This document shows positions 98-36,020 of a stretch of DNA of 64,000 bases, one piece after another. Every line of letters begins with the position of its first letter. Positions within the stretch are counted from its first letter, which is position 1. The translations under genes were made by a program, and so were the position numbers. Below the pieces are notes generated by a model. The model saw only the letters and a list, made by a program, of their open reading frames with translations, was not told where the DNA came from and made no database searches. This DNA is from an uncultured bacterium. GTDB lineage: Bacteria; Patescibacteriota; JACMRA01. The stretch is from positions 125,618 to 189,617 of the forward strand of contig CAWAQU010000007.1 of the NCBI GenBank assembly GCA_963784355.1, written 5' to 3'.

Positions 98-3000
98 TTA
101 CCCAATCTCCACCTGCAACCCAGTAGCAGTAACAGTATAGGTGCCTTGAGGTAAATCAGTAAACTGGAACTTACCATCAACTGCTGTACTTGCTTGTCTA
201 TTTATTGTAATACCATTAGGCCCTGTACCGGATAGATTAACTTGTACACCACCTATTGGCTCATCGTTATCTTCTAAAGTATATATATCCTCATCAAGTC
301 CTGAAATATCAAAACTACCATTATTTTCCTTATCCCTAAATACTTTTCCTGTTATGGAAGAGTTGGAAGTGAGTACCGGAGTAAACTGGAAGAAGTTGAT
401 TGTTGATTTTTGATATATACTTGTATTTGTGATAGTTAGAGTTACCTCACTAACTGAACCTAAGTTGACAGTGGTTGGATCTTCTCTTTCTCCAGACCTA
501 CTTTTAGTTGTATTTGTGTTTAGTTTGCCGGTTAAGTTGTTGAGCTTTTTAATTATGTAAGTACCAGGTTCTAAATATGGGCCTGTATCAAAGTTACCAA
601 TAGTACTGTAAACTACTTCACCATTTTGTTTCTTAACTTCAAAGTTACAACCAGCTACCGGCCCATCAGCTGGGTTGTTGGGATAAGTACTAAGCTGTCC
701 GTCACCATTTTTATCATCAATACACTGCCCCTTTAATTTATTAGTATACACATAAATCAGATTATTTGTGATAACTGTACTATTATCTATATTGACACCA
801 GCTTTAACTATATCAGCATCGCTGTAGTCTACACCTCCAATCATAGTTGTACCCCATACCCACTTTTCACTAAGTATTTTCTTACATTTAATTGTAGTTA
901 AACACTGATCAACTACACCGGAAGCGTACTGAATTGGTATAATAGCGTTAGGAATAGGATTACTCTCCCCCTCGCCATCACTAAACTTATGCAATTTGTA
1001 ATTACCAGTTGGCAGTCCTGTAATTTCGTAGTCTCCGCTTGAGTTTGCTGTAGCTGTGTAGGTACCAAGAGGCCCTACCACAGAAACTACCGTACCTGCA
1101 AGTACCGTTTCCCCAGTATTATATTCATTCTCACCTTGCTCGTCGCGTTGGTTGATAAATACTTTACCCTTAATAATATTGTTAGTGAAAGGACTAAATG
1201 GATAGTTCTTTGCTAAATTTTCACTAGCCAAAATACCTATAGGATCAGGGTTAGATAAACCGCCGCCTAAGGTAATTCCGGATGGAATATTGTTAATACT
1301 AACTGAGTAATTTCCCGGCATCAAATTTCCAATTCCGGTTTGACCGCAACATGGATTTGGGCCAACGTTTGTAGCTACTACAGAGTTATCAGCTGTAGTT
1401 AAAGGATCACCTGTATAAGTCAGGGTAAATCTTATTGGGCCACCTTTTTCAGTTGCTAATTCAGACTCATCCCAGATACCATTGGCAATTGTGTCATGAA
1501 AGGCTCCTATAGTAAAGACTGCATTGTAGTCATAAGTAAAGTCTTGAGTAGTGTTGGTGTCTTGGTATACATATGTCCCTTCAGCAATGCACATTAAACA
1601 AGTTGTGCCACTTGGCGCCACGTCAGCAACTTGTACTCTGTAATATCCTTCAGCAAGGCCTGGGAAGTTGTACTCACCGTTTTGATTAGTATTTTGGGTA
1701 GCAATAAGTATATTATGCATATACAGCTGAATAATTTTTCCACTATATAGCTGTTCATTATCAAAAACAGTTGCCGGATTATTATCTAAACCATTTGCTT
1801 CATAATCAGTGCTGCCTCTGTTTAAATATACTTTTCCACTTATGCTACTATTGTTTGTTGGGATAAAGCCGTAAGTAAGACTAAAGTTTTTAGTGATGTT
1901 ATCAACTGTGAATTGTTTAGTAAGCTCGCTACCGGATAGTGGTGGATAAGGAGACTGCACTTGGGTAAATTCAACTTTGTAATCTTTATTAGGAAGTCTT
2001 TTGAATATGAGTGTAGCTGGGTCTGTATAATCTGTTTGTGAGCTTACATTACCCAGAATATTCCCAGTAACTGCATCTTTAAAGACATAGACTCCTGTAG
2101 TGATTATAGTTTGATCTCTTCTACCATTGCTTTCATCTCCGTCTTGTTGATTGTTATGATTTTGGTCGATATACAACTGATTGCCTACATTACCGGTGTA
2201 TCCAACAGCAAAGTCTCTATTTCTACTATCTACATTAGTTCCAGGAGTGATAGAACCATAATCTCCTCTATTGCGTAAGTTATTAAAGAAATACCAACCT
2301 TTGTCTCCAAGGTAACTATTACACACAGTACTAGGTAAGCCCGTTAAACTTCCTTCTTCAGGTAAAGTTGTGATTTTAACTACCTGATATGCTCCGGGTA
2401 CTATACCTGTAAAGCTGTATTTACCATCACTATCTGTTGTAGTAGTTGGTGGGTTTAGATTCCACTGATTGACGTCGGCTTGAGTTTCTCCATATCCTCC
2501 CTCACATTTTATCAATTTAAACTGAACGCCTGAATATCTAAAGTCATCATCAAAACCATAGTCATGTCCGTCTGAAATACCAGTTTGCCCGTTGTTACCT
2601 AGTGGCTCATAGCTACCGTCTCCATCCCTATCATTCCAGATGTAACTTGTGATTGAAGAAGATGACATATTTGGAACGTAAGCAGCACCAGGATAATATC
2701 TAAAGCTAACCTCAGAAGTACTTCCTAGGTATACTGTAGTATTTTGTTCTGTAGCTGATAGTTCTGAGTAGAGCTGCTGATCAAACGGACTTTGAGAGTC
2801 GGGAATTAGAATAACAGTATAGTCTCTAGGTGGTATTTCTCTAATACAAGGATTTGCTGTGTTTAGAGTATAGATTTCCGTAGTTTGAGTAGATAAATAG
2901 CTATTGTATCTTAGCTGTACTTTGACCCCATAATCCAGTAAATTGGTATCTGTTGAGTCCAAATCACCATCGTTATTTTTATCAACATAGACTAAAGGAC

Positions 3001-6000
3001 AAATCTTGGCGGTGTATTCAAATCCGAAGTTCTTATTTCTTATTTTTTCATTGGTTGTTACAGTACTAGCTAAAATTGAATTAGTCGGAAGCACTGCCTC
3101 AGTACCAAGTGGGGTAGGGACTCTTGTCTCGTAGTCACCCGGTTCAAGATTGATAAATTCATAATTACCATTAACATCAGTGATAGTATAGATAGGAGCA
3201 TCACTAAAGGCATTTGTGGTAGTATTTTTCTTGTATAACCTGACTTCTTTTTCAGTTAAAACTACATCGTTATCAAACACAGTGATTTCCAAAGTATCTT
3301 GACCGTACTTATCAAAAACTCCATTTCCGTTTCTATCAATATATACATTACCTCGAATAGCACCTTTATTGAAGCTAGAGTTATTTGTATAACCAAAGTT
3401 CAAGGTAGTGTAGCTAGATGAAGCTATTGTCACTGCAACATTGTTTCCTCCTGTAGTTGATGAATATCCATTTGGAATAGTCTGCACAACTTTGTAATTA
3501 TTTGGGAATAAATTATTGAAACAATCATTTCCACCACTGGAAGTACTAAAGCTTTTAATTACAGTATTAGGATCACTGGTTCTGTAAAGTTTAGTCAAAA
3601 CACCTGGTATTTGAGCCTCATTTTCATCTTTACTCTCGTTAAAGTTTAAATCGTTGTAAGTATTTACTAAACAGATACTAGAATTACCGTTGTAACCAAA
3701 TTCAATATTTTTAGTTTCATTTGGCTGCAATACGACCAGTTGGTCTCCACCTGTTGTGCTGCTGCTGCCATTAGGAGCATCTTGGGTAATCAAATATTGC
3801 CCTGGAGCTACTCCATTGAAACAAGTGCTATTTGAGTTTGATACAACATCAGTCACTTTAGTTTCTAATATTGTTCCGTCGGTTGATTTTCTGTAGGTTG
3901 TGATGTTATCCAGTAGTATATCCTGGCCACTATTAAATTGACCTGGGGTCACAACATCTTCAAAGGTTTTAGCGGCGCAGATATTACCATTACCATTGAA
4001 ACCGAATTTAGGCCCAGCTTCTACTCCAAAGCTTGTGGTGATTGTTAGGTTTAAAGGTGTGGTATTGCTGTAACCGGTTGGAATATTACTTGCACTCAGC
4101 TTATATTCACCTATTACTTGCGGATTGAAACATTGTTTAGTACTGCTGGTAGTTAGCTCACCGATTGTAATAGTTTCATTACTATTTTTCAGAGTTATTT
4201 TTACTCCACCAAGCCTTACTTCACCACTATCAAAATTACCATTACTATTATCATCTCTAAATACTAAAGGACAAATCTTCGGGTTTCCGTTGTAACCGAA
4301 TTTAACTGTTTTAGTTTCTCCTGAAGTAAAAGTACCAATGGATTGCTCCAGGCCTGTAGTTGAAATAGTATTTTCCAGTAGCGAAGCGGTTACTTTGTAG
4401 TAATTATTGAAAGCAATTATGTCAGTAAAACAGAGAGTGCCATTTGCTTGGAAAGAATTTACTTGATTACCATACTTATCTTTTAAGCTAACTGTAACAC
4501 GCCCGTCGTTTATGAGATTTTCCCCCAAGTCGTAATTTCCGTCGCTGTCATAGTCTTCAAAAATCTGATTAGGACAAATCTGACTATTTCCTTTGTAATT
4601 AAAGATAACATTTTGATCTTGAGCAAAGTTTACAGTCACATTTACTTTGGCAATGTTGGTAGTTTGAGTAAAGCCTCCTGTAGCATTTGTAATGGTAGCT
4701 CCGGTAGGTACAGTTTGCTCTATCCTATAATTACCCGGAATTACATCAGTAAAACAATTACCACTTCCACTTGGTAAATCAGCTCCAACTTGTTGGTTGT
4801 TAGAAACCTTGATTAATTTGCTAATTACACCATCAATTTCAGGCTCACCGGCATTGTTAGTACCATTTTTATTGTAATCATTTATGGCAACAGGGCAGAC
4901 TTTACTGTTACTGTAATAACCAAATTCAGCATTAGTTCCATCATTATTTACGAAGTTTTTAGTTTCCCCATTAGCTAAACTTATATTTCTGGTTTGCTCA
5001 CCTTGAGTTAAGCTTTTTGTGTTAGTGGTATTACCATCAGGAGACTGTTTAACCGTATAATTCCCCGGCATCAAATCTGCAAAACAGTTAGTGTTATTGG
5101 TGTTGAACTGCCTGACTACTTTAGCACTGTCAATTAGAGTTGTTGTATAGCCAGCTATTAAAGGCTCACCCACGTCTTGAATCTTGTTTTTATTATCATC
5201 TCTAAAGGTAGGATTTGGACAAATTTGCCCGGTACCTTTGTATCCGAAGTAGACAGATTTATCAGTTTCAGGATCTAAACTTACAGTCTGAGTTTGGATA
5301 TTTCCGGTTGTTGTACCTGTAGTTGAAACTCCACCAGTTGGAATAATCTGCTCAATAGTGTAAGTTTTGTTTGGACTAACGGCTGCAAAACACTTGGTAG
5401 AAGAACCATCAGAAGTAATAGTTTCAATTACTGATCCGTTATCTTTAAGAGTACTTACTACTCCAATCATTAATGGTTCGTTTTCAAAAGTACCAAAAAC
5501 GCTACTATTATTAATGTAGTCTCTAAATGGTAGGGGACAGACTTTTGCATTTCCTGTAAATACTTCAAAAGTAGAAGAGGCTTGTAAATTAGGGTTGGTG
5601 TCTCCGGCAGTTTGAGTAACTGCTGTATTTCCTGTACCGGCTTGATTTGGAATTGGGTCAACTGTACATACACCGTTTGCTACAACTCCAGTTTCAGTAA
5701 TTGGAGAGTTAAAGCTGGGCCCTGAAAATGTCATACTACAAGTAGCCCCATCCGTACCTTCCAGAGGCTCGTCGTTACCTGTATCTTCCAATCCGCTAGT
5801 TCTAGCTGTAAATTTGTATCCGGCGTATACCTTATTAATTATGGTATTGTTTGCTCCATATGTGGTACTTAAGACTGTGCCTGTATTTTTTAATACTGCA
5901 GTACTGTTAGTTGCCAGTTTAGCTTTACCGCTAGCAAGCAGTCTATAGCCAAAAGCTGTGTCTTGATTGACTCCGAAAGCTAATGTAATAGATTGTCTGA

Positions 6001-9000
6001 CTTTATTGCCAGCTACAGTTCCACCGGTTGAAGATTGTGAGTTGGTGACTAAGTCTTGCTCTACGGTATAGTTTCCTGGAGCAATAGGGCTGAAACAAAT
6101 CTGTCCACTTTGATCTGTAGATACTTGTTGTTTCAAAGTATTTAAATCGCTACTTAGATACAGTCTTGTTATTTTGCTGTTTATTGGTAAATCACTTCCA
6201 CCAAAGCTACCATATCCTGGTTGACCGGCTTTATCTTTTTCCAGATAAGTTCTGTTGATACAGATTTGAGCGTTTCCGTTGTAAGCGAAGTTTTTTGTTT
6301 CAGTTGTATTTACTCCTAAAACTATCTGGTATTTTACTTTTCTATTTAGATTATCTACAATTACCCCGTTATTAGTTGCCAGCGGGAAAGTAAGGGTGCC
6401 TCCTACCGGATAACTCTGCTCTACAAAATATGTATCATCAAAGAGACTATTAAAACAATTATCTATACTTGTATTAGTTCCGTTAGTACCATCTACTGTA
6501 GTCAATGTTTTTCCGGAAATCGGATTTTGATTAGCATCCAGTAATCTGGTAGCTACACCTGCCAGTAAAGGCTCAGTACTTTCTTTAGTACCGTTACTAT
6601 TATCATCTCTAAAGGTATTATTTACACAAATCTTAGAAGTTGGTGAGTACCTTACTTCAGTAGGAGTAGTAGCTGTTTCATAGGTATAGCTCGCGTTGAA
6701 ATCAGTATTAAACACACTTACTACTGTTTTTAAAGTAGCACTTCCCGTAGAGCCTACTTGAGCTGCGGTGAAGTTTGTTGCACATTGTCCTTGGCTATCT
6801 AGTGTTGAAGTAACTGCAACTTCAGGATTTGCTCCGATTTTTAGAATATTTTTACAAGTTTGCCCGGTTAAATTACCGTTATTAGCAAAATTTCTAATAT
6901 TTGGAGAGTAAATTATGGCAGATTGACCGGCAACAAGTGGGTTAGGGGAGAAGGTAAGAGTACCTGGAATAGTCCCTGTAAGACCATTATTACCTGTTAG
7001 GTACAAATCAAAGCGTCTACTAAAGTTTGTTGTGTTTGTAGTTAGGGTCGTGTCATCACCATTTGAATTTTTACCGGCAACAGAGACAGTAAAGCTATAG
7101 CTTCCTTTTAAGTAACCTAACTCACTTCCTGTTGGGCTAGAAGTGCAAGTACCATTACTTGCTGCAGCTGAAGTTAAGCTAAATTGACTACTGTCAGGTT
7201 TAGTGATTTTGAACTCACAAGTAGGCCCGTTTAAAGGTTGATTATTTGCAGAATCTGTAAGGCCTGAAACAGTTAAATTAACACTTGTACCAACAAAAGT
7301 TGTAGTAACAGTAGTAGATCCGTTTACTGTAGGGGAATTGGAGACCGGAGTAGTACCGGTAGCTACCTTTGCTTTGTTTGAAGGAAAGCCTGTAGTTGGT
7401 ATAGTAGTTTGGTTAGTTTCAAAAGGATAGTTTGTACTGCTATAGTTTAAAAGAACTATTGTTTTGACTTTCAAGACACCTGCAGTAATTACATTATTTG
7501 CAATTGTAGTCACACATTTTGAGCTTGCATCAAGAGTTGAAGCGTATTCTATTGGAGTCTGGCTATCAATTTGTACTAGGTTTTTACAAACTAGGCCTTG
7601 AGCTAAGTTAGTCGAGTTATCATATTTTTTGATAGTTGGAGAAGTTAGAGTAGGGTTAGCTCCGCCTGAAACAATCGGGCTACTGCTAGATGTAATACTT
7701 CCCGGTATCTTACCATTTACATCAAAACTAGTTCCATTTGTTAGGTAAATGTCAAAGTATCTGTTGAAATTAGATGTATCCGTAGTCAAGCTACTACTTG
7801 GCCCCGCTACCGAAATACTAGCTGAGTATGTACCTGCTACATATGGTAAATCAGAAGGGGTAAAAGTTTTTTTACACACACCACCAACAATGTTACTATC
7901 AGAAGCAAAGGTTTGGCTATAGCTATTTGGCCCCGTTATATTAAAAGTACAAGGTATACCATTTAAAGCTTGGTCGTTACCGGAGTCTTTTAATCCATCA
8001 AAAGTTAGGACTATATTACTACCGATAAAACCAGGATTAGGATTGGAAGTTAAAGAGTTGTAAATTGGTTTAGTTTGATTTGGTGAAGACTGAGCTTTTG
8101 CTTTATTGGAAGCAGAAGGGTAAACTGGAAAACCAACTACTTTTCCTTCCGTACTACCTCCACTAGTTACGCTTAAATTAGCTGTAAAGCTAGTAGCTTG
8201 AGTATCAACTGTATCGGGCGCAGGGAATGAAGCTGTAGTTACGCATGTACCCTGGCTTACAGTACCAGTTTTGGCTACTGGGGTAGAATAGTTTCCGGGG
8301 CCATTAATTGTAATTGTGCAAGTACCTGAATATACATCTCCTCCATATTTATTTTTAATATTACTTATACCACCTAGGAAAGTAGCTCCGGTTGATACTG
8401 GGTTAGGGTTTGGACTAAATAGAGCTGAAGTTAAATTAGTTTCAGGTGTATTAGGATCATAGATAGTACCAGTACAACCTGAAGTAGTAGCCGGGTAAGC
8501 AGCAGTAGCTGCCTCAGCGCAGTCACCGTTACCAGCTCCACCATTTACTGTAATTGAAGCCGTGGATGTGCCTTGTGACATAGTGCCTGTACGGTTGATG
8601 TAGTAAAGAGCAATACGGCCTCCTGCTCCGGCGCCACCATTTCCAGTAGAGTTTCCTCCTCCACTAGCACTAATACTACCACCACCTGCTAGAGTATTAG
8701 CTGTGAGCCAAATGCTACCTCCTGAGCCTCCTCCACTACCATAAGCACCACCGCTTACATTTCCATTAGCACTAATACTACCATTAACTGTAATAGTACC
8801 AGTTGCTACAAGTTTAATAGCTCCTCCTCCGTTTCCTCCATCTGCCGCACCTGAACAATATCCTCCACTTCCACTACCTCCTGAACCAAGATCAAGTGGT
8901 TCTGTAAGTGATCCATAACTGTTCCCCCCGATATTACCTGTATCAGAATCTCCTCCTTTTCCTCCATAACCTCCACCTGCTCCTCTTTGACCAGAACAAT

Positions 9001-12000
9001 TAGCGGTAGCCGCTCCACCACCAGTACCGTTACCAGGTTGACCTGCGTTGGCACCTCCACCCGTATAACCCCTTCCATTCACATCAATCTTAGCACCTGT
9101 ATCTAACGTAATATTATTTGAGTTAATTATGACACTATTATCATGAGTAGCTACATTAGCTCTATGAGTAATAGTACTACCACTATTAACAGTTAAAGTA
9201 TTAAAGTTATATGTGTTTTTAGTACCTAGAGTAACTAAACTACCTGATTTGACTAAGAAAGTATCTGTTACAGTAGGAGTATTAGTTGTAGTTAAGTCTA
9301 AATTAGCGTTTTCAATAGTTAAATTAATTACTGTAAAAGCTGAACTAATAGGTGTAGTAGCAATATTACTTGAAGCAGTAGTATTTCTAATAATCAAATC
9401 ACCATTAGTTTTATCAGCAGGCTTATCATATATTGTACCTGCTCCTCCAGTTTGAAATCCAGTTCCTCCTGAAGCTGTAACAGCTCCTGAGAAAGTTTTA
9501 CTTGCTGCTGTTGGGTAGTAAAGAGCAATACGGCCTCCTGCTCCGGCGCCACCATTTCCAGTAGAGTTTCCTCCTCCACTAGCACTAATACTACCACCAC
9601 CTGCTAGAGTATTAGCTGTGAGCCAAATGCTACCTCCTGAGCCTCCTCCACTACCATAAGCACCACCGCTTACATTTCCATTAGCACTAATACTACCATT
9701 AACTGTAATAGTACCAGTTGCTACAAGTTTAATAGCTCCTCCTCCGTTTCCTCCATCTGCCGCACCTGAACAATATCCTCCACTTCCACTACCTCCTGAA
9801 CCAAGATCAAGTGGTTCTGTAAGTGATCCATAACTGTTCCCCCCGATATTACCTGTATCAGAATCTCCTCCTTTTCCTCCATAACCTCCACCTGCTCCTC
9901 TTTGACCAGAACAATTAGCGGTAGCCGCTCCACCACCAGTACCGTTACCAGGTTGACCTGCGTTGGCACCTCCACCCGTATAACCCCTTCCATTCACATC
10001 AATCTTAGCACCTGTATCTAACGTAATATTATTTGAGTTAATTATGACACTATTATCATGAGTAGCTACATTAGCTCTATGAGTAATAGTACTACCACTA
10101 TTAACAGTTAAAGTATTAAAGTTATATGTGTTTTTAGTACCTAGAGTAACTAAACTACCTGATTTGACTAAGAAAGTATCTGTTACAGTAGGAGTATTAG
10201 TTGTAGTTAAGTCTAAATTAGCGTTTTCAATAGTTAAATTAATTACTGTAAAAGCTGAACTAATAGGTGTAGTAGCAATATTACTTGAAGCAGTAGTATT
10301 TCTAATAATCAAATCACCATTAGTTTTATCAGCAGGCTTATCATATATTGTACCTGCTCCTCCAGTTTGAAATCCAGTTCCTCCTGAAGCTGTAACAGCT
10401 CCTGAGAAAGTTTTACTTGCTGCTGTTGGGTAGTAAAGAGCAATACGGCCACCTGCTCCGGCGCCTGGAGTACCACCAGTACCAGCGTTACCACCATTAG
10501 CAGTAATACTACCACTACCTGCTAGAGTATTAGCTGTAAGCCAAATGCTACCTCCACTTCCACCTGCTCCTCCATAGCTGCTACTTCCACCATCATTTCC
10601 ATCAGCACTAATACTTCCATTTACTGTAATAGTACCTGTCACTTGTAATTTAATAGCTCCTCCTCCGTTTCCTCCATCTGCCGCACCTGAACAATATCCT
10701 CCACTTCCACTACCTCCTGAACCAAGATCAAGTGGTTCTGTAAGTGATCCATAACTGTTCCCCCCGATATTACCTGTATCAGAATCTCCTCCTTTTCCTC
10801 CATAACCTCCACCTGCTCCTCTTTGACCAGAACAATTAGCGGTAGCCGCTCCACCACCAGTACCGTTACCAGGTTGACCTGCGTTGGCACCTCCACCAGT
10901 ATAACCTCTCCCAACCCCATTAAGCGTACTACCCACACCTATATTCACACTACTTGCATACACTTTAAGTCCAACTCCCTGAGCTACATTTACAGTAGTT
11001 CCTGCTGCTACAGTAAACACTCCTACGTTACAATATCTTCCTGTTAGAGTATCTCCATTAGCTGGAGTAAGATTTGCTCCTTGAAGATCATTATCACAGT
11101 CTAGTTTATTTATACTTACTGTATTTGAGTCTACACTATTACCTGCTCCATTTGCAGCTATTATTTTAAATTGATAATCTTGACCTGGAGTAAGACCTGT
11201 TACTGTACTATTTGGATTTGTATTAACTCCATCATTATATATTGTTTCAGTAGTAAAATTATTTTGACTATATTTAATTATATAATCAGTAATACCACTT
11301 CCATTATCAAAAGGAGTTGTCCATTTTAAAAATACTTTATCTCCTTCTGTTTTATCTACAACTAAATCAGTAATAGGGTTAGCTTTACTAATACCTCCAT
11401 AAGTAAAACTATTAAATACAACTGAACTAGTCCCATCAGAGTTGGTAATCTTTACAGTTTGAGTACCTGTACCACTTGGAGTGTAAATTGTAGCTGTAGT
11501 AGAGTTGACAAGGTCAGCATATACCTCATTAGCTCCTATTTTAACTATGATACCTCTATTTTCAGAAGATAAGCTTGTAGTTGGCATGGAGCTGGTATTG
11601 TATAATCTATACTTGGTGTTTAGGTAGGATTCGATTGTTTGGCGGTCGGGGTTTGAGAGAGAAGAATTAAAAATTAAAGTTTCAGCTATATCTCCACTAT
11701 GATTACCATATGTATCACTACCCAACTGTTTTGGAGCGTACACTGTAGTTTTAGGTGAAGTTAGTCCAGTTCTTACACTTGAACCGTTAAGGTATATGGT
11801 TGGCTGTTTTGCAGTGTACTGTAATCCTATTAAATTGTTTACTGTTCCTACATTTCCATTATATACTGCCAAAGGCGGCATATAGCTGGCCCCATGCTCA
11901 TATATAGAAATACCGTTTGTACCAAGAGAAATACCAGCCCCCGCATCCATATTTGAAGGCCATAGTAAGTATCTTTGCCCACCTGTACCAGTGGCTGTAC

Positions 12001-15000
12001 CATTGCTTTCTGCATCAATCTCATGAGTGACATCAGTTTTTGCTACGGAAAAAACAGTAAAATCATTGGTTGCCGGATGATTAGCACTTGCAATAAAATC
12101 ATTACTACCATCAAACCTAACCACAGGCAACCCATTAATCACCCCACTCTTATACACAGGTTGATTAGCTGCAGTAGCTTGAACAGCATTATTGTTACTT
12201 CCACTTCTATCACTCCATTGACTGACAGCTTGTCCATCAGTACTAGTACCAGCTCCATCATTAGCTTTAAGCCATAACTTATTATTAGTACCACTTAGTA
12301 CTGAACCAAATGAAAAATTATTAAGATTGCTTTGTGAAGTTAAGCTAGGTTCATTATATCTAACAAAAACCTTTTTGCTGCTATTTGCTCCTATACTAGG
12401 TACCTTCACCCATACCACAGTACTACCACTACCACAACCTCCATCTATCCAATAGTTTAAATCAGTAGTTCCATCAGCATCCTTTATTCTTAAATCTCCA
12501 CAATCACTTCTCATTTTACCTGCTGATATTAAAGATTGAGTATCTAATACAAAACTAGTTTCATAGTTACTAAGAGCTGAGCCTGGGTTGGTGAGAGTTA
12601 GTGTTCTTTGGTAAAGATTAGACCCAAAATTGTTACCAGTAATAGTTAGAAAAGTACCTCCACTATTAGGACCTGTATTTGGAGAGATAGATGTAATACT
12701 TGGAGCTACATAACTAAAGCTAAAACTATTACTACCAGTTCCATCTGGATTTACTACTTTAAGCTGTACTGTACCCAAAGCATGAGCTGGTGTAATTACT
12801 TTAAGTTGGGTAGGGGAGATGTATTGGGTTTGAGATATGAGATTACCATCTATGTTGACGCCACCCCCAAAAGAACCTTCTGTATTTGATATTGATACAG
12901 TTGGCATGGAGCTGGTATTGTAGAGTTTGTATTTTGTGTTTAGGTAGGATTCTACCACTGAACTATTTTCCGGACTCAAATCACTACCCAAGCCTATTAT
13001 TTCTGCTATATCAACATTTAGATAGTATGTATTCTCAGTAGCAGCTAATTGCATTGATCTAATATCAGTAGGGCTAGCTGTTTTTAAATTCATCAACATT
13101 GGGCTATCAATAGGGGTAAGATTAAACGGATTCACTAAATCTGTACTATTTTTCCTAACTGCTCTTGGGTATGGGTTGAAATGAAGTATAGTATTCCCTG
13201 ATTCAAATAAACCCATCCTATTCCCGCCTGAGTTTCCAAGTATACCTCCATAACTAGTAAAGTTAGGAGTGTTTGATTTAAAAACTGTAAGATATTGAGA
13301 AATTGCTGCTGGATTTTGTATGTTAAGTGTATCATTACTACCATCAAACCTAATCACAGGTAATCCATTAATCACCCCACTCTTATACACAGGCTGATTA
13401 GCTGCAGTAGCTTGAACAGCATTATTGTTACTTCCACTTCTATCACTCCATTGACTGACAGCTTGTCCATCAGTACTAGTACCAACTCCATCATTGGCTT
13501 TTAACCATAACTTATTATTAGTACCACTTAGTACTGAACCGAATGAAAAATTATTAAGATTACTTTGGGAAGTTAAACTTGAATCTCCATAAGTAAGATA
13601 AACAGTCTTACTACTACTTGCTCCTATACTTGGAACTTTAAACCATACTAAAGTACTACCAGTATTACAACCACTTTCTATCCAATAACTAAGATCAGTA
13701 GTTCCATCAGCATCTTTTATTCTTAAGTCTCCACAATCACTTCTCATCTTTCCACTACTAATCAAACTAGCTGTATCAACCACCACACTTCCTTCATAGT
13801 TAGTTAGGGGAGTAGTTGATGGGTTGGTTATTGTGATTGTTTTTCTTATTCCTATAATACCAAAGTTACTTCCATTAACAATAATCTCTTTACCTCCTGT
13901 TGTAGGACTCTCACTAGAACTTAATGAACTAATACTAGGTGCAGCATAAGTAAAGTTAAGACTACTAGTTTCAGTTCCATCAGCATTAACTATTTTTACT
14001 GTAACTGTACCGGGAGCATGTTGAGGAGTTGTAAACTTGAATTGAGATTGGGAAAGTAACTGAGCGCCACTAACTATAGTTCCATCTAGCTTTACTTTAT
14101 TTAGGGATAATTCACTGCCTATTGTAGTGGTAGCTATACTAGAGGTGTTGTATAGCCTGTATTTAACGTTTAAAAACTTTTCTACATTCTGACGATCTGT
14201 ATTGGATAAAGATGAGTTAAACACCAATACCTCGGCAATTTGTGCATTTGAGTATTCTCCAAAAGAAGGGGTACCATTCAAAGAAATACCATTTGGGCCT
14301 GATAGTCCTCCCGCATTACTTGCTATCAAAGTACCGTTTCCATAAATACTTGAAATCGAACCTGTTCCCCCGCCGGAGTATAAATTCCAGGATGTATCTG
14401 AAGGTGTACTACCGTTAGCTACCCAGCCGTCAGGATGAAATTTATCTTTACCACCTCCCCAGTACCCAAACAACCAGTTATTATTCACACCTGCCATTAC
14501 TCGACTATTAGCCCCTCCAGTCTGCCTAGAGACATAAAGTACGCTATATGGCGGTTGGAAATTTGTATTATTTGTAAGAGTTTGTGAAGCTGCTGCTGAA
14601 AACTCGACTACCGGCAAACCATTTAAAATATTAGATTTAAATTTAGGTTGTCTAGTGGCTGTGGCTTGTGTAAAATTATTATTATTTCCACTCTTATCAC
14701 TCCATTGACTGATTGACTGTCCATCTGCAGTGGCTCCCACTCCGTCATTGGCTTTAATCCATGATTTTAAATTAGCACCCCCTAATATACTGCCAAAGCT
14801 AAAATTTGATATATTACTCTCACTAACCAAACTACTATTACCATAATTCAAATAAATACTCTTACTTGCTCCGGCTGAAATACTAGGTACTTTTGCCCAA
14901 ATTACAGTACTACCACTACCACAACCTCCATCTATCCAATAATTCAAACTAGTAGTTTTATCACTATCCTTTATTCTTAAATCCCCACAATCACTTTTCA

Positions 15001-17938
15001 TCTTACCTGTGCTTATCAAGCTAGCTGTATCTAAAGTAAAACTAACTTCGTAATCAGTTAAATTAGTTGCTCCAGCTCCACTATTATTAATCACTACTTC
15101 TCTCTCATAACCATTCCCAAAATTACTACCATCAATAACTACTTCAGTCCCTCCACTTGTAGCTCCACTACTAGGACTAAGACTAGTTATCTTAGTAACA
15201 AAAGTAACACTACTTGTATCACTAGCTACTCCACTACCACTTGAATTTGTTGCAACTACTCTAAAACTATAGTTAGGCCCAAACTTTAAATTATTTATTG
15301 TAGTACTTGTTCCTGTAATTGAATTTGAGTGAGTAAAAATATTATTGTTAAATCCATCATTACTATACTGAACACTATAACTACTTGCTCCACTTGTACT
15401 ATTCCAGCTTAAATTAGCACTAATCTCATCAGCATTTTTAACTGCACTAAGTCCTGTAACTTTATCAGGTACTCCTAAGGGAGAACTAGATTCATTAGAG
15501 GTAGCTAAAGTATAGTAACCATCTTGTAAATCAGCATTTGCTACAGAAAAGCTAATTTGATCACCATTAGCTAGGGTAGGGGTAGTATTTGCTACAGTAG
15601 AAAAACTACCTGTGTTACTAGATCTATAAAGCAATCTATAGTTACTAATGTTTCCGGGTAATCCACCTGTATATTTACTTAAATCAAAACTAACTTTAGC
15701 ATCTACTCCATCAGTAACAGTCTTTTTAATACCCCAGACTTTATTCCATCTTTTAGTTGTTCCTGAAGGTAGGTCAGAAGTTACTACTGTTTTACCAGCT
15801 CCATCATTACCTGCAAAAACATACTCTCCATCAGCTAAGCTGTTGTTGGATTGAGCTAGCTCTAATTCATCACTAAGATTGTTATTTACTCCTCCATCAG
15901 ACTCTTTACCAATACCGGCAAGGTTATTTGTAGCAGAGGTTAAGTTGTATTTACTGCTGGAAAGAGTTAGACCATACTTAGAAGCTAAGTAGTTTTCTAT
16001 GATTGTGCGTTCTGTGGTAGACAAAGCTTTTGGTAGGATTATTATTTCGGAGATGTCGCCTTTTAAATTGTAAGCTGAGTTAGCAGGGTAATTTCCTATC
16101 TTAGTAATATTGAATGCATCGGTAGCCATGCCTGAGTTTGTAGGACCCGCTGTGCCATTTAAATAGCTTATTGCAGTTGTCCCATTTTGAACTGAGCCCA
16201 TTACCGCATAGCTATTATCTAATGTGGATCCAGATTCTGCTACTCCTCCTGCACCGCTGCCGGCATCATTGTGGGCTATTACAAACTTATTTCTTTTGAT
16301 ATTTGAGTAAGTTCCGACTGTCGCAACTCCAAAATATTTATCTGATGGACCTGTTCCTAAATAAATACTACCTGTTGCAGAGTCATTATTATTGGCAACA
16401 ATGAAAGCTGATACCTTATCACTAAAGCTAACATTATTTAGGTCAAAGTTTTTTGTACCATCAAACCTAACAACCGGCTTACTATTTAAAGTATTATCAA
16501 CTAAGCTAGGTTGACTTGTAGCTGTAGCTTGAGTAGCATTATTCCCAATACCACTTTGATCTTGCCAGTTACTAATCTTTCCTGATCCGTCTTTAACTAT
16601 ACCACTATCAGCTTTAAGCCATAGACTTGTTTTAACTGTATCACAACCTGCAACAGGTAAATTATATTTTTTGGATAGGTAGCACTCGGCTTGTTTTCTT
16701 TCTGAATCTGATAGAGCTCGATCATAGATCAATACTTCAGAAATATCACCGTTAAAATCACCAGGGCCAATCGTCGTAGCTCCCGTAGTGGTATTGACTC
16801 CTGATGTAGAATTACTAATAGATTGATTTTGACCATTTACAAATAAACTCGCTGTGGCTCCATCTCTCATACCTGACCATAATTCCCAGTTAGTAGTAGC
16901 TGCACCATCACTCACCCAGGCTATACCAGCGTGGTGAATATTTCTTGTCCCTCCATTAAAATACAAACCAGCTCCATTTGCATTCTGTACAATACCTTTA
17001 GTTGATCCTGTATCATTAGTCTTAGCAACAGATATCATAGTATAAAAACCATTACCAACTACTACATTTGCAGTAGAAAGATTATCATTACTCCCATCAA
17101 ACCTAACCACTCCCTTCCCATTTAACCCACTACTCACCAACAACGGCTGACTACCCTCGCTACTCTGACTAGCATTATTACTATTCCCACCACTAACATC
17201 ATTCCAACTCTTCACATACTTAGTTCCGCCACTATCTCTAACCTGACTACTATCACTTGCATCAATTTGACTAGCATCTAATCTTAACTTTAATCCATCT
17301 GTAACTGTTAAATCATCAGGATCATTATTATAGTTTAATCCTGCGCTTCCTTTCTCAGCATCATCATCAAGTATAGTATAGGTAAAACTAGCAGTACTAC
17401 CTAAAACAACTCCACCGGTAGGACTAGACAGCGTAACTACAACAGTCTCATTACTTTCAACCCCACTATCATTAACTATCTTTAAAGGAACACTACCAAC
17501 TGTTTGGCCTGCTGGAATAACTAAACTTCCACTAGCTAAACTATAGTCAGCTCCATTACCTGTAGCCGTACCACCTGTGACAGTAAAATTAACTGAAGTA
17601 CTACTAGTAGTAGCCTGAGATAAATTAACAGTAACTGAAGGATTACTAGTAACTTCAAGACCTGCTGATGAACTAGTAAGAAACTGTATAGTACTACTAC
17701 TTGCCTTAGCATTATTTAAATTTAAAAGACTAGGTAATATAGCTGTGATAATTACTATTGTACCTAGACCAATTAAACTACCAAGGACTATTACTTTCTG
17801 TTTTTTTGATAGCTTAAAATTCTTTAGAGCTGGGAAAGAGAAAAAGGAAAGCCTACTGGCTATTACCAGTCTATTAAACTTAAGTCTTTTATTTAGATTT
17901 ACCTTAGCACTCTTTAATACTTTACTTAGAAAGTTCAT
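98..17938 (-). CDS. Giant (5946 aa) multidomain surface/adhesin protein: N-terminal basic region plus TM/signal, Calx-beta, 2 LamG-like, FN3, 3x IPT[DUF2341[LamG]], FN3, 3 Gly-rich units, Cys-containing Ig-like repeats, ~18 SdrD-B-like domains
   Basis: Uninterrupted ORF. Hydrophobic stretch VIVLGSLIGLGTIVIITAILPSLL followed by AKA. Calx-beta motifs (GTATGNGADY, VESNETVVVTLSSP, YTILDDD). LamG flanks (LWLKAD...W.DQSG..N.A.Q; GDISEIII). DUF2341 motif (LIS.GKM.SDCGDLRI.D...L.YWI...VW.KVPSI). IPT motif (ITSISP..GP..GGT...G.NFG). Repeated F.D.N.NG..D..E loops. Confidence 0.9.
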   Translation of the reverse strand: MNFLSKVLKSAKVNLNKRLKFNRLVIASRLSFFSFPALKNFKLSKKQKVIVLGSLIGLGTIVIITAILPSLLNLNNAKASSSTIQFLTSSSAGLEVTSNPSVTVNLSQATTSSTSVNFTVTGGTATGNGADYSLASGSLVIPAGQTVGSVPLKIVNDSGVESNETVVVTLSSPTGGVVLGSTASFTYTILDDDAEKGSAGLNYNNDPDDLTVTDGLKLRLDASQIDASDSSQVRDSGGTKYVKSWNDVSGGNSNNASQSSEGSQPLLVSSGLNGKGVVRFDGSNDNLSTANVVVGNGFYTMISVAKTNDTGSTKGIVQNANGAGLYFNGGTRNIHHAGIAWVSDGAATTNWELWSGMRDGATASLFVNGQNQSISNSTSGVNTTTGATTIGPGDFNGDISEVLIYDRALSDSERKQAECYLSKKYNLPVAGCDTVKTSLWLKADSGIVKDGSGKISNWQDQSGIGNNATQATATSQPSLVDNTLNSKPVVRFDGTKNFDLNNVSFSDKVSAFIVANNNDSATGSIYLGTGPSDKYFGVATVGTYSNIKRNKFVIAHNDAGSGAGGVAESGSTLDNSYAVMGSVQNGTTAISYLNGTAGPTNSGMATDAFNITKIGNYPANSAYNLKGDISEIIILPKALSTTERTIIENYLASKYGLTLSSSKYNLTSATNNLAGIGKESDGGVNNNLSDELELAQSNNSLADGEYVFAGNDGAGKTVVTSDLPSGTTKRWNKVWGIKKTVTDGVDAKVSFDLSKYTGGLPGNISNYRLLYRSSNTGSFSTVANTTPTLANGDQISFSVANADLQDGYYTLATSNESSSPLGVPDKVTGLSAVKNADEISANLSWNSTSGASSYSVQYSNDGFNNNIFTHSNSITGTSTTINNLKFGPNYSFRVVATNSSGSGVASDTSSVTFVTKITSLSPSSGATSGGTEVVIDGSNFGNGYEREVVINNSGAGATNLTDYEVSFTLDTASLISTGKMKSDCGDLRIKDSDKTTSLNYWIDGGCGSGSTVIWAKVPSISAGASKSIYLNYGNSSLVSESNISNFSFGSILGGANLKSWIKANDGVGATADGQSISQWSDKSGNNNNFTQATATRQPKFKSNILNGLPVVEFSAAASQTLTNNTNFQPPYSVLYVSRQTGGANSRVMAGVNNNWLFGYWGGGKDKFHPDGWVANGSTPSDTSWNLYSGGGTGSISSIYGNGTLIASNAGGLSGPNGISLNGTPSFGEYSNAQIAEVLVFNSSLSNTDRQNVEKFLNVKYRLYNTSSIATTTIGSELSLNKVKLDGTIVSGAQLLSQSQFKFTTPQHAPGTVTVKIVNADGTETSSLNFTYAAPSISSLSSSESPTTGGKEIIVNGSNFGIIGIRKTITITNPSTTPLTNYEGSVVVDTASLISSGKMRSDCGDLRIKDADGTTDLSYWIESGCNTGSTLVWFKVPSIGASSSKTVYLTYGDSSLTSQSNLNNFSFGSVLSGTNNKLWLKANDGVGTSTDGQAVSQWSDRSGSNNNAVQATAANQPVYKSGVINGLPVIRFDGSNDTLNIQNPAAISQYLTVFKSNTPNFTSYGGILGNSGGNRMGLFESGNTILHFNPYPRAVRKNSTDLVNPFNLTPIDSPMLMNLKTASPTDIRSMQLAATENTYYLNVDIAEIIGLGSDLSPENSSVVESYLNTKYKLYNTSSMPTVSISNTEGSFGGGVNIDGNLISQTQYISPTQLKVITPAHALGTVQLKVVNPDGTGSNSFSFSYVAPSITSISPNTGPNSGGTFLTITGNNFGSNLYQRTLTLTNPGSALSNYETSFVLDTQSLISAGKMRSDCGDLRIKDADGTTDLNYWIDGGCGSGSTVVWVKVPSIGANSSKKVFVRYNEPSLTSQSNLNNFSFGSVLSGTNNKLWLKANDGAGTSTDGQAVSQWSDRSGSNNNAVQATAANQPVYKSGVINGLPVVRFDGSNDFIASANHPATNDFTVFSVAKTDVTHEIDAESNGTATGTGGQRYLLWPSNMDAGAGISLGTNGISIYEHGASYMPPLAVYNGNVGTVNNLIGLQYTAKQPTIYLNGSSVRTGLTSPKTTVYAPKQLGSDTYGNHSGDIAETLIFNSSLSNPDRQTIESYLNTKYRLYNTSSMPTTSLSSENRGIIVKIGANEVYADLVNSTTATIYTPSGTGTQTVKITNSDGTSSVVFNSFTYGGISKANPITDLVVDKTEGDKVFLKWTTPFDNGSGITDYIIKYSQNNFTTETIYNDGVNTNPNSTVTGLTPGQDYQFKIIAANGAGNSVDSNTVSINKLDCDNDLQGANLTPANGDTLTGRYCNVGVFTVAAGTTVNVAQGVGLKVYASSVNIGVGSTLNGVGRGYTGGGANAGQPGNGTGGGAATANCSGQRGAGGGYGGKGGDSDTGNIGGNSYGSLTEPLDLGSGGSGSGGYCSGAADGGNGGGAIKLQVTGTITVNGSISADGNDGGSSSYGGAGGSGGSIWLTANTLAGSGSITANGGNAGTGGTPGAGAGGRIALYYPTAASKTFSGAVTASGGTGFQTGGAGTIYDKPADKTNGDLIIRNTTASSNIATTPISSAFTVINLTIENANLDLTTTNTPTVTDTFLVKSGSLVTLGTKNTYNFNTLTVNSGSTITHRANVATHDNSVIINSNNITLDTGAKIDVNGRGYTGGGANAGQPGNGTGGGAATANCSGQRGAGGGYGGKGGDSDTGNIGGNSYGSLTEPLDLGSGGSGSGGYCSGAADGGNGGGAIKLVATGTITVNGSISANGNVSGGAYGSGGGSGGSIWLTANTLAGGGSISASGGGNSTGNGGAGAGGRIALYYPTAASKTFSGAVTASGGTGFQTGGAGTIYDKPADKTNGDLIIRNTTASSNIATTPISSAFTVINLTIENANLDLTTTNTPTVTDTFLVKSGSLVTLGTKNTYNFNTLTVNSGSTITHRANVATHDNSVIINSNNITLDTGAKIDVNGRGYTGGGANAGQPGNGTGGGAATANCSGQRGAGGGYGGKGGDSDTGNIGGNSYGSLTEPLDLGSGGSGSGGYCSGAADGGNGGGAIKLVATGTITVNGSISANGNVSGGAYGSGGGSGGSIWLTANTLAGGGSISASGGGNSTGNGGAGAGGRIALYYINRTGTMSQGTSTASITVNGGAGNGDCAEAATAAYPATTSGCTGTIYDPNTPETNLTSALFSPNPNPVSTGATFLGGISNIKNKYGGDVYSGTCTITINGPGNYSTPVAKTGTVSQGTCVTTASFPAPDTVDTQATSFTANLSVTSGGSTEGKVVGFPVYPSASNKAKAQSSPNQTKPIYNSLTSNPNPGFIGSNIVLTFDGLKDSGNDQALNGIPCTFNITGPNSYSQTFASDSNIVGGVCKKTFTPSDLPYVAGTYSASISVAGPSSSLTTDTSNFNRYFDIYLTNGTSFDVNGKIPGSITSSSSPIVSGGANPTLTSPTIKKYDNSTNLAQGLVCKNLVQIDSQTPIEYASTLDASSKCVTTIANNVITAGVLKVKTIVLLNYSSTNYPFETNQTTIPTTGFPSNKAKVATGTTPVSNSPTVNGSTTVTTTFVGTSVNLTVSGLTDSANNQPLNGPTCEFKITKPDSSQFSLTSAAASNGTCTSSPTGSELGYLKGSYSFTVSVAGKNSNGDDTTLTTNTTNFSRRFDLYLTGNNGLTGTIPGTLTFSPNPLVAGQSAIIYSPNIRNFANNGNLTGQTCKNILKIGANPEVAVTSTLDSQGQCATNFTAAQVGSTGSATLKTVVSVFNTDFNASYTYETATTPTEVRYSPTSKICVNNTFRDDNSNGTKESTEPLLAGVATRLLDANQNPISGKTLTTVDGTNGTNTSIDNCFNSLFDDTYFVEQSYPVGGTLTFPLATNNGVIVDNLNRKVKYQIVLGVNTTETKNFAYNGNAQICINRTYLEKDKAGQPGYGSFGGSDLPINSKITRLYLSSDLNTLKQQVSTDQSGQICFSPIAPGNYTVEQDLVTNSQSSTGGTVAGNKVRQSITLAFGVNQDTAFGYRLLASGKAKLATNSTAVLKNTGTVLSTTYGANNTIINKVYAGYKFTARTSGLEDTGNDEPLEGTDGATCSMTFSGPSFNSPITETGVVANGVCTVDPIPNQAGTGNTAVTQTAGDTNPNLQASSTFEVFTGNAKVCPLPFRDYINNSSVFGTFENEPLMIGVVSTLKDNGSVIETITSDGSSTKCFAAVSPNKTYTIEQIIPTGGVSTTGTTTGNIQTQTVSLDPETDKSVYFGYKGTGQICPNPTFRDDNKNKIQDVGEPLIAGYTTTLIDSAKVVRQFNTNNTNCFADLMPGNYTVKQSPDGNTTNTKSLTQGEQTRNISLANGETKNFVNNDGTNAEFGYYSNSKVCPVAINDYNKNGTNNAGEPEIDGVISKLIKVSNNQQVGADLPSGSGNCFTDVIPGNYRIEQTVPTGATITNATGGFTQTTNIAKVNVTVNFAQDQNVIFNYKGNSQICPNQIFEDYDSDGNYDLGENLINDGRVTVSLKDKYGNQVNSFQANGTLCFTDIIAFNNYYKVTASLLENTISTTGLEQSIGTFTSGETKTVKFGYNGNPKICPLVFRDDNSNGNFDSGEVRLGGVKITLKNSNETITIGELTTSSTKQCFNPQVIGEYKLSASNIPTGYSNTTPLNLTITTSFGVEAGPKFGFNGNGNICAAKTFEDVVTPGQFNSGQDILLDNITTYRKSTDGTILETKVTDVVSNSNSTCFNGVAPGQYLITQDAPNGSSSTTGGDQLVVLQPNETKNIEFGYNGNSSICLVNTYNDLNFNESKDENEAQIPGVLTKLYRTSDPNTVIKSFSTSSGGNDCFNNLFPNNYKVVQTIPNGYSSTTGGNNVAVTIASSSYTTLNFGYTNNSSFNKGAIRGNVYIDRNGNGVFDKYGQDTLEITVFDNDVVLTEKEVRLYKKNTTTNAFSDAPIYTITDVNGNYEFINLEPGDYETRVPTPLGTEAVLPTNSILASTVTTNEKIRNKNFGFEYTAKICPLVYVDKNNDGDLDSTDTNLLDYGVKVQLRYNSYLSTQTTEIYTLNTANPCIREIPPRDYTVILIPDSQSPFDQQLYSELSATEQNTTVYLGSTSEVSFRYYPGAAYVPNMSSSSITSYIWNDRDGDGSYEPLGNNGQTGISDGHDYGFDDDFRYSGVQFKLIKCEGGYGETQADVNQWNLNPPTTTTDSDGKYSFTGIVPGAYQVVKITTLPEEGSLTGLPSTVCNSYLGDKGWYFFNNLRNRGDYGSITPGTNVDSRNRDFAVGYTGNVGNQLYIDQNHNNQQDGDESNGRRDQTIITTGVYVFKDAVTGNILGNVSSQTDYTDPATLIFKRLPNKDYKVEFTQVQSPYPPLSGSELTKQFTVDNITKNFSLTYGFIPTNNSSISGKVYLNRGSTDYEANGLDNNPATVFDNEQLYSGKIIQLYMHNILIATQNTNQNGEYNFPGLAEGYYRVQVADVAPSGTTCLMCIAEGTYVYQDTNTTQDFTYDYNAVFTIGAFHDTIANGIWDESELATEKGGPIRFTLTYTGDPLTTADNSVVATNVGPNPCCGQTGIGNLMPGNYSVSINNIPSGITLGGGLSNPDPIGILASENLAKNYPFSPFTNNIIKGKVFINQRDEQGENEYNTGETVLAGTVVSVVGPLGTYTATANSSGDYEITGLPTGNYKLHKFSDGEGESNPIPNAIIPIQYASGVVDQCLTTIKCKKILSEKWVWGTTMIGGVDYSDADIVKAGVNIDNSTVITNNLIYVYTNKLKGQCIDDKNGDGQLSTYPNNPADGPVAGCNFEVKKQNGEVVYSTIGNFDTGPYLEPGTYIIKKLNNLTGKLNTNTTKSRSGEREDPTTVNLGSVSEVTLTITNTSIYQKSTINFFQFTPVLTSNSSITGKVFRDKENNGSFDISGLDEDIYTLEDNDEPIGGVQVNLSGTGPNGITINRQASTAVDGKFQFTDLPQGTYTVTATGLQVEIG
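8600..10897 (-). repeat. Intragenic tandem repeat of Gly-rich unit, period 915 bp: 8600-9535 matches 9515-10450; partial third copy 10649-10897 matches 9728-9976
   Basis: Direct sequence comparison by eye. Off-frame ORFs are identical at 915-bp offset (8806/9721 and 9213/10128). Confidence 0.95.
12098..13576 (-). repeat. Dispersed intragenic repeat: 12098-12343 vs 13331-13576 (~246 bp, offset 1233)
   Basis: About 11 mismatches counted by eye. Encodes ...SNLNNFSFGSVLSGTNNKLWLKANDG.GTSTDGQAVSQWSDRSG...RFDGSND. Confidence 0.9.
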
Positions 17939-18176
17939 ACTTTGTTTTTATTTCTGTTTTTGTTTCTTTTTTATTTACCTAGTTTAGGTTTTTATCTTTT
18001 ACCTACTACCTAGTTAAGCTTTTGAAGATAGATGTTTTTTGTTGTGTAGTTGTGTTTAGTTGTTTTTGTTTGTAATTGTAGTGTGCTGTTTAGCTTTGAG
18101 TTGATGAGCTAGTTGTTTGCTTTGTTTAGTTATTATTTATTGTTATTCAGTTACTAGTTTCTACTGATTTTCCATG

Positions 18177-18205
18177 ATTATATTCTACTTTTTTATTTTA
18201 TGCAA
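18177..18205 (-). promoter_or_regulatory. Sigma70-type promoter of the giant gene (TTGCAT-N17-TATAAT)
   Basis: Minus strand reads TTGCAT aaaataaaaaagtagaa TATAAT, about 240 nt upstream of the ATG. Confidence 0.7.
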
Positions 18206-18356
18206 ATGTATGGGGGAAGCTAGCGCATTAGGGAGAGATGATAGGTGCATAAATTAAAACTACCAAATAGCTACATGTGTGGTACAGGGCATTATGGACA
18301 GCAGAGTATAACCTCCGTAAAAGATAAATGTATACTTGACTACAGGTCTCAAGCTT

Positions 18357-18572: not shown

Positions 18573-18590
18573 AACTTTTTTATTACTTAG

Positions 18591-36014: not shown

Positions 36015-36020
36015 CAATTA

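Follow-up and report, generated by a model that had tools for sequence, protein, structure and literature searches.

Past recombination at frame/core junctions has probably reshuffled lectin-like cores in two paralogous giant adhesin genes of a patescibacterium

The stretch of DNA analysed here, called the window throughout, comprises 64,000 nucleotides (nt) of contig CAWAQU010000007.1 (positions 125,618 to 189,617) in the assembly GCA_963784355.1 of an uncultured Patescibacteriota bacterium, and its first part is occupied by a giant adhesin-like gene, gene A. Gene A is a single open reading frame (ORF) on the minus strand (98..17938) encoding a giant protein of 5946 amino acids (aa), for which a surface location is expected from its domain content. 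From its start, the protein carries an N-terminal transmembrane or signal segment, a Calx-beta domain, two LamG-like units and FN3, followed by three TIG-DUF2341-LamG modules, FN3, Gly-rich repeats and an SdrD_B/SpaA-like stalk. The corresponding Pfam matches are Calx-beta, Laminin_G_3, FN3, TIG plus DUF2341 three times, and a long stalk of SdrD_B, SpaA and CarboxypepD_reg domains. The genome (G000) amounts to 1.14 Mb in 13 contigs, is 81% complete by markers and encodes RecA. The nearest relative of its RecD2 belongs to a Candidatus Saccharimonadia metagenome-assembled genome (MAG; 56% identity), pointing to an organism from the Candidate Phyla Radiation (CPR), and this placement suggests an episymbiotic lifestyle. 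CPR bacteria depend on attachment to other cells, and their host recognition is largely unknown.

All parts of gene A lie on the minus strand. The two N-terminal LamG-like units are N1 (16643..17278, aa 221-432, core about 16751-17083) and N2 (15947..16633, aa 436-664). The modules M1 to M3 span aa 917-2181, each composed of TIG, DUF2341, a lectin-like unit and a TIG-like end, and each lectin-like unit can be divided into an N-terminal frame, a core formed by the middle 105-138 residues, and a C-terminal frame. M1 (13937..15190, aa 917-1334) has its frame at 14585-14767, its core at 14246-14584 and its C-terminal frame at 14129-14245. In M2 (12701..13936, aa 1335-1746), the N-terminal frame KLWLKANDG...RFDGSND (13331..13513) is followed by the core (13016..13330, aa 1537-1641) and by the C-terminal frame DIAE...YLNTKYKLYNTSSMPT (12899..13015), which corresponds to the last strand and a helix. 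In M3 (11396..12700, aa 1747-2181), the same parts lie at 12098..12280, at 11696..12097 (aa 1948-2081) and at 11579..11695 (GDIAETLIFNSSLS...YLNTKYRLYNTSSMPT).

An initial annotation, made from the letters of the window, had described M1 to M3 as DUF2341-LamG modules, of which the first half stands as written. DUF2341 (PF10102) scores 56 bits in M1, 63.4 in M2 and 51.1 in M3 against a cut-off of 23.4, with matches covering only model positions 1-62 of 84, while M1 of the second gene described below covers 1-83. The Laminin_G_3 profile (PF13385), on the other hand, is reached by N1 only (37.1 bits against a cut-off of 27.6), and N2, M1, M2 and M3 give no match to it at E up to 0.1. In tblastn, N1 matches N2 and M1-M3 with E values of 4e-9 to 8e-17 over 194-227 aa, and through this homology the four units are best classed as LamG-like.

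The fold was predicted with AlphaFold for the M3 unit only, on an alignment of 35 units. The model (predicted local distance difference test, pLDDT, 80.3; predicted template modelling score, pTM, 0.83) consists of one two-sheet beta-sandwich followed by a helix. Its N-terminal frame provides strands 1-4 (residues 1-61) with pLDDT above 90, residues 195-224 form the last strand and the helix, and both frame blocks exceed 90, while the core contributes the remaining strands and low-confidence loops. Foldseek returned 283 matches to this model in the PDB at E up to 0.001, which are ConA-like lectin domains; the top matches are a phage tailspike (E 1.3e-7), trans-sialidase lectin domains and the PilC lectin module. 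As modelled, the frame would consist of the first four strands, ending in PVVRFDGSND, together with the last strand and the C-terminal helix (GDIAE...YLNTKY), and each lectin-like unit would be a single ConA/LamG-type beta-sandwich. The conserved flanks of the initial annotation would thus be part of the lectin-like domain itself in M3. Glycan binding by these units is expected from their domain content.

The central observation of the initial annotation, that M2 and M3 share near-identical DNA ending at RFDGSND, switch abruptly to unrelated cores and then reconverge, is borne out. A repeat search aligned 12098-12397 with 13331-13630 over 300 nt at 91%, the inner 162 nt at 96%, and the low-coordinate end of this tract is exactly the D codon of RFDGSND. 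Past this point, the two cores are unalignable (22% protein identity, 38.5% over codon-aligned DNA), and on the C-terminal side the modules come together again (11579-11632 versus 12899-12952, 89% over 54 nt). M1 does carry a third core type, 17-22% identical to those of M2 and M3. The proposal that N1 and N2 also part right after a shared VVRFDG motif holds for the motif and fails for the flanks: PVVRFDG DNA recurs at 12095, 13328, 16445 and 17081 (34 nt, 79-88% identical), whereas the whole frames of N1 and N2 are only 43% identical as protein, so PVVRFDG represents a conserved motif there and not near-identical flanking DNA. Between M2 and M3, identity rises toward the junction, from 55% in the segment TIG_b through 79% in DUF2341 to 93-100% in the frame, and then drops abruptly, as would be expected of nested conversion tracts that end at a block of non-homology.

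Codon composition does not separate the two kinds of segment. At third codon positions, the G+C content (GC3) amounts to 0.29 in the frames (299 codons) and 0.25 in the cores (353 codons; p = 0.31), and for none of S, T, G, N, A and V do frame and core differ in the choice of synonymous codons (p at least 0.12). The contrast in codon usage seen by eye in the initial annotation therefore disappears on counting, and a foreign origin of the cores, considered as a candidate, finds no support in GC3 or codon choice. Further downstream in gene A, a Gly-rich repeat of 915-921 nt occurs in three copies (8600..10893, minus strand), the second and third of which are 100% identical over the compared stretches, a further indication of recent intragenic homogenisation. 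Tandem Repeats Finder reported nothing in window 1-18000 at its longest period of 500, which is below that of the 915-nt repeat.

The genome holds a second giant paralog, gene B, located by tblastn and blastn on contig C10 (about 20844 to 3712, minus strand). Between gene nt 146 and 806, the sole difference between A and B is one extra A in B; identity is 96% over nt 1186-3126; and across nt 9400-17838 only 19 substitutions and 17 indel columns occur in 8439, the longest stretch without any difference measuring 2108 nt, which gives a 3' match of 99.6% over 8.4 kb. Gene B also shares the start codon and about 57 nt of upstream region with gene A. The sequences flanking the two genes are not homologous: B is bordered by an AhpC-family peroxiredoxin gene and a 113-aa ORF without family match, and on the other side by a peptidase gene of family M3 (oligopeptidase F-type).

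On this near-identical chassis, gene B carries a different core or domain than gene A at four of the five lectin positions. At N1, the 5' DNA is identical and the core is unrelated (23% aa identity), the A/B identity stopping at gene nt 806, about 20 nt ahead of the VVRFDG codons. At M1, the entire LamG unit is swapped for a different ConA-like domain. M2 of gene B (B-M2; the prefix denotes the gene) has another core and an extra domain of about 150 aa within the N-terminal frame, while B-M3 carries the core type of A-M2 (53-55% aa identity). N2 is the only lectin position with the same core in both genes (92% aa). Over the linker-plus-frame segment (231 nt, codon-aligned), A-M2 is 93% identical to A-M3 and 97.8% identical to B-M3.

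The consensus of gene B requires caution. The extra A lies at gene nt ~458 (window 17481 region; C10 ~20405; TTTAAAG versus TTTAAAAG) and shifts the frame of B near codon 153; either a consensus error or a slip may account for it. Another 16 small frameshifting indel events fall in the 3' 5 kb of the gene. C10:1-5790 was assembled again in opposite orientation as C8:5797-1, 99.4% identical with differing small indels, and the C8 copy lacks all four frameshift indels of B inside this overlap. The contig ends were left unmerged, and gene B has a poor-quality consensus at its 3' end. Since the overlap frameshifts do not recur in the C8 copy, the frameshifts of B are treated as unproven, and the interpretation of gene B as a pseudogene or silent archive was rejected as unproven. 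Gene B also has an exact internal repeat of its own, 433 nt long (C10 12204-12636 and 13074-13506).

These features bear on the explanation that the near-identical tracts and the paralog itself arose from collapsed or cross-polished reads of co-occurring strains. Such an origin would be in keeping with a MAG whose C8 and C10 ends duplicate each other with differing indels, and with the density of frameshifts in the last 5 kb of gene B. The M2/M3 frame repeat, however, lies within one intact ORF of 5946 aa and is 93-96% identical rather than 100%, and the genes flanking A and B are unrelated on both sides. Additionally, in X1, a sequencing run of soil metagenome DNA, 7% of the sampled words were present and six short contigs of depth ~3 were obtained; with a different assembler, these contigs hold A-type pieces without differences (three records) and B-type sequence across two A/B break points, although X1 may be the source sample and is hence not independent support. 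The six contigs contain no joints and give no information on variants, and hence they do not bear on switching. An assembly artefact is quite unlikely on the whole; it is unlikely for the intragenic repeat, and less so for the A/B identity.

Synonymous sites provide the strongest contrast between frame and core. Synonymous (dS) and nonsynonymous (dN) divergence were calculated by the Nei-Gojobori method on a codon alignment of the six modules of A and B. For A-M2 and B-M3, dS is 0.06 in the N-terminal frame and 2.7 in the core; for A-M3 and B-M3, 0.12 and 2.3; and for A-M2 and A-M3, 0.16 and 2.0. The core values (2.0-2.7) are saturated. Purifying selection on the protein cannot keep synonymous sites identical, so frame and core differ in age, and a jump in dS beyond what selection alone can produce indicates that the pattern was made by recombination or gene conversion. 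The cores of A-M2 and B-M3 are homologous (dN 0.38, dS 2.7), and their divergence is old and under purifying selection rather than a product of hypermutation.

Homologues place the cores in a wider context. Among 41 genomes searched (numbered with G; _u gives the number of the lectin-like unit), 16 gave matches, including 13 of the 24 other genomes of the same family. Eleven open frames in nine genomes were scanned with two small hidden Markov models, yielding 45 N-frame and 43 C-frame matches; 36 of the 45 N-frame matches passed the filter, and 35 were paired with a C-frame to define the units, one N-frame of G012 being dropped for want of a C-frame partner. The core of A-M2 is 56% identical to G018_u2 and 50% to G022_u2, that of B-M3 55% and 48% to the same two, and that of A-M1 53% to G025_u2. 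The A-M3 core has a sole relative among the 35 units, G007_u6 (38-43% aa), and the B-N1 and B-M2 cores have none among them. The A-M2 core is as distant from B-M3 in its own genome as from another genus, while the frames of A-M2 and B-M3 are 98% identical and those of A-M2 and G018_u2 31%. The core types are old lineages common to several genera.

Frame and core trees were built from 21 of the 35 units, with units and test groups chosen after the pairwise identities had been seen. In the frame tree, A-M2, A-M3 and B-M3 form one group (support 96/94), and a clade by core type is rejected in the approximately unbiased (AU) test (p = 1e-4); in the core tree, the units group by core type (99/98, 98/98 and 100/99), and the frame clade is rejected (p = 3e-19). 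The dS jump, these reciprocal AU tests and the presence in B of other cores between identical DNA together support different histories for frame and core, with recombination breakpoints at the frame/core junction. Two of the outcomes that the initial annotation had listed as counting against its idea, cores alignable over their full length and congruent trees of core and flank, are therefore not observed, while the third, an equal codon usage, is, as described above.

It would be possible in principle to dispense with recombination, if purifying selection held the frames and diversifying selection drove the cores apart very fast. The frame motifs are indeed kept at the protein level across the whole family and in phage proteins, and fast divergence is possible for one pair of units within a single genus, G004_u2 and G019_u2. 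In this pair, TIG, DUF2341 and frame are about 68% identical, the sequences become unalignable after RFD..ND, and they reconverge at GDISE, so that frame and core are decoupled in another genus as well. In gene A and gene B, however, the synonymous sites of the frames are near-identical too (dS 0.06-0.16) beside saturated cores, and the two trees conflict in both directions. Furthermore, core types are 50-56% conserved across genera, which means that cores are not evolving ultra-fast. An account without recombination is contradicted by these results and is hardly credible.

The insert within the B-M2 frame (C10 ~15200-15700) lies between KLWLKAN and SxWxDxSGNNNN, has no Pfam match and shows the motifs GNGYVSA..MFGL..DIDFAIY..VYESG..YKKNG. 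The same insert of about 150 aa is also found in G018_u2, G004_u4 and G019_u1, and in the frame tree B-M2 and these three units cluster at 89/97 with G007_u6, in which the insert was not checked.

The comparison of module positions between the two genes reveals a further level of rearrangement. The TIG start and the TIG-like end follow position, pairing A-M2 with B-M2 (95% and 86%) and A-M3 with B-M3 (90% and 81%). From TIG_b to the core, by contrast, A-M2 is closest to B-M3 (79, 89, 97.8 and 61%), and in TIG_b and C-frame A-M3 is closest to B-M2 (81% and 79%). A block with DUF2341 and the lectin-like unit thus appears to occupy the second module position in A and the third in B. The exchanged units vary in size, from a sub-domain core through a whole ConA-like domain to a block reaching from DUF2341 to the core, and therefore the handles are not one fixed pair of sites. 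The conserved flanks proposed as recombination handles in the initial annotation are accordingly retained as places where breakpoints fall, at the junction, and not as a defined site pair.

The most probable explanation is homologous recombination and gene conversion, both within each of the two paralogous multi-lectin adhesin genes and from one to the other, which have left a near-identical chassis with reshuffled old cores. RecA-type homologous recombination, acting within a gene and between A and B, would repeatedly homogenise all stretches that are sufficiently similar, and conversion tracts would halt where homology ends, that is, at the frame/core junction. The same events could shift core-containing blocks between module positions, and chimeras joined at the junction would probably survive, as frame and core would still fold together. 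The likely result is a pair of identical stalks bearing nine different lectin-like heads between them, the heads being reshuffled over evolutionary time. Within this genome, near-identity extends over the frames and the whole chassis of A and B.

Several points weigh against this explanation. The groups submitted to the AU tests were named after the pairwise identities were known. The genome is a MAG with unmerged contig ends and consensus indels, and some of the near-identity of the paralogs could be an artefact of consensus building. In the eight other genomes examined, identity between frames of the same genome does not exceed 55%, and strong frame homogenisation is so far apparent in this genome only. 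No exchange event was seen directly, and no close strain was found: the highest identities are 47-48% outside G000 among the 41 genomes, 56% (on the frame) in 55 metagenome loci and 45% in 45 giant proteins. As for binding function and surface location, both are taken from domain content only. The giant homologue with 45% identity is labelled 'candidate division SR1' at NCBI, a label that may be loose; gene A is open for 5946 codons under table 11, and the family therefore does not look like a code-25 lineage.

Whether recombination is also organised into a switch was considered from the machinery encoded in the genome. The initial annotation had advised a genome-wide look for silent or paralogous cassettes, and this brought to light one full-length paralog, gene B, and no silent store: tblastn of frames and cores against the 81%-complete assembly found only A, B and one phage LamG protein, the cores of M1 and M3 having no second copy. 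This search thus gives no support to a library of silent cassettes. In agreement with the initial annotation, which had assumed diversification without the reverse transcriptase of a diversity-generating retroelement (DGR), no match to PF00078 was found in the genome at this completeness, and the cores differ as unalignable segments without A-biased point differences. No inverted repeats of at least 30 nt occur in window 1-20000. The scanned neighbours of gene A (a fasciclin-domain gene, a DsbD-thioredoxin gene, a HAD gene and hypotheticals) include no recombinase, and one serine recombinase is encoded 4.8 kb upstream of gene B, at the edge of a prophage-like region. Nothing in the results points to a dedicated switch, or to ongoing, programmed or frequent switching; recombination is supported on an evolutionary scale.

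Programmed variation, in which gene B, or A and B reciprocally, would donate lectin cores to the expressed gene through frequent gene conversion at the frame arms and so switch host or surface recognition in the manner of bab, pilE/pilS and MgPa, is rather unlikely. There are two loci with near-identical ends and different binding heads, the broken frame of B near codon 153 in an otherwise identical 660-nt stretch could represent an OFF state, and the same frame/core junction recurs in another genus; antigenic variation has also been speculated for giant CPR proteins in the accessible part of one study (PMC11809585). Opposed to this are a single other copy instead of a truncated donor set, cores of M1 and M3 that have no second copy, and a gene B that keeps its upstream region and start codon, unlike a silent cassette. 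The four frameshifts of B in the twice-assembled stretch, which are missing from its second copy, may be consensus errors, and neither the inverted repeats nor a recombinase beside gene A was found in the searches above. A fuller version would make the frame/core junction of this LamG subfamily a selected recombination joint and A plus B a two-locus switching system, one copy being OFF through a one-base slip in an A-run and serving as an archive, with RecA-driven conversion between homogenised frames moving cores from locus to locus and position to position within a population. As a joint proposition, this is unlikely; if true, it would constitute a DGR-free, sub-domain cassette mechanism that alters which host surface a CPR episymbiont attaches to.

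Recombination between paralogous adhesin genes, the explanation preferred here, has described counterparts. The closest by analogy appears to be gene conversion among the bab paralogs of H. pylori, where babA, babB and babC have near-identical ends and a divergent binding middle, and undergo intragenomic gene conversion that yields chimeras (PMC4552749, in the part accessible). As reported there, the divergent middle is thought to carry the binding specificity, chimeric genes arise by intragenomic homologous recombination, and a frame-shifting tract may switch one copy off. Genes A and B likewise present two loci with near-identical ends and divergent binding parts, a mosaicism explained by intragenomic recombination. 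They differ in being 17 kb long, compared with about 2 kb for the bab genes, and in having five lectin-like positions where the bab genes vary in a single middle part. Some of the breakpoints in A and B fall within a single beta-sandwich domain. Moreover, A and B are known from one genome of a CPR bacterium rather than a human pathogen, and exchange among isolates was not observed.

Two further cases concern large surface proteins. Giant FhaB/DUF2341 proteins of Patescibacteria have been suggested to reshuffle their domains through homologous recombination, possibly for antigenic variation (PMC11809585). In the available sections of that study, the proteins share with gene A the phylum, the class, a length above 4000 aa, the surface type and DUF2341, and the argument proceeds from missing full-length homologues, with no breakpoints given; relative to it, genes A and B add junctions, a dS contrast, a second paralog and conflicting trees, in one genome. 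In the VARTIG module of Thermococcales, an Ig domain is hypervariable by recombination (PMC8416519, seen in part). A large surface protein with a recombination-hypervariable domain of binding type is common to both, and in both the variant types are scattered relative to the species tree. According to the same portion of the source, it is the C-terminal Ig domain that varies, small donor-like genes lie downstream, and the exchange takes place between strains or species, not within a genome, with no nucleotide breakpoints resolved.

Other classes of variation system fit less well. The pilE/pilS system of Neisseria and the msp2/p44 system of Anaplasma combine one expression site with many truncated, promoterless donors. 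DGRs, built on a reverse transcriptase and a template/variable repeat pair, diversify ligand-binding lectin-fold domains on a conserved scaffold through adenine-specific substitutions. Genes A and B share with silent-cassette systems, as outlined in the accessible part of PMC11946796, variable segments between conserved stretches, which supply the homology for gene conversion. They differ in that gene A has a single, full-length partner, which retains a start and an upstream region of its own, and no further cassette, so that one expression site with several truncated donors is not what the 81%-complete assembly contains. With DGRs, the common aim would be a diversified ligand-binding fold on a conserved scaffold; here, no reverse transcriptase was found in the 81%-complete genome, and the cores differ by whole unalignable segments and indels. 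An invertase shufflon of the hsdS or pilV type is not indicated either, given that window 1-20000 has no inverted repeats of at least 30 nt and the scanned neighbours of gene A include no recombinase. By analogy, the A/B pattern resembles known mosaic adhesin families, with no evidence for a new switching machine. In the literature as far as it was examined, no description was found of an exchange that affects only the inside of one lectin-like sandwich and uses its outer strands as homology arms, of several positions affected at once, or of the twin-gene arrangement.

The locus provides nucleotide-level breakpoints for an idea so far speculated for giant CPR surface proteins, as far as the accessible part of PMC11809585 goes. 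It shows that the unit of exchange can be no more than the interior of a lectin-like beta-sandwich, with the outer strands and helix kept as a common frame, and the nine natural core variants on one chassis make a ready set for questions of binding and of chimera folding. If exchange is frequent, it would offer a retroelement-free route to host-range variation; if it is not, the locus would be a clear example of concerted evolution, of a fairly ordinary kind, in an adhesin family rich in repeats.

The prophage-like region beyond gene B (C10:25657-48000) encodes a large serine recombinase, AAA_24, ParA, a DNA methyltransferase, a terminase large subunit and a tail spike. It also contains a stand-alone LamG protein of 251 aa (C10:43530-44285), which matches phrog_10356, a phage virion structural family (1.6e-26), and has the same frame motifs as the adhesin units. 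This protein was considered as a source of cores and rejected, as its core matches none of the 35 cores (best E 0.48). Elsewhere in the window, a homologue of TrwB/TraG-type coupling proteins lies at 37650-39053 and the RecD2 helicase at 46124-48565, and genes for tRNA-Thr, tRNA-Pro and tRNA-Arg are located at 34854-37138.

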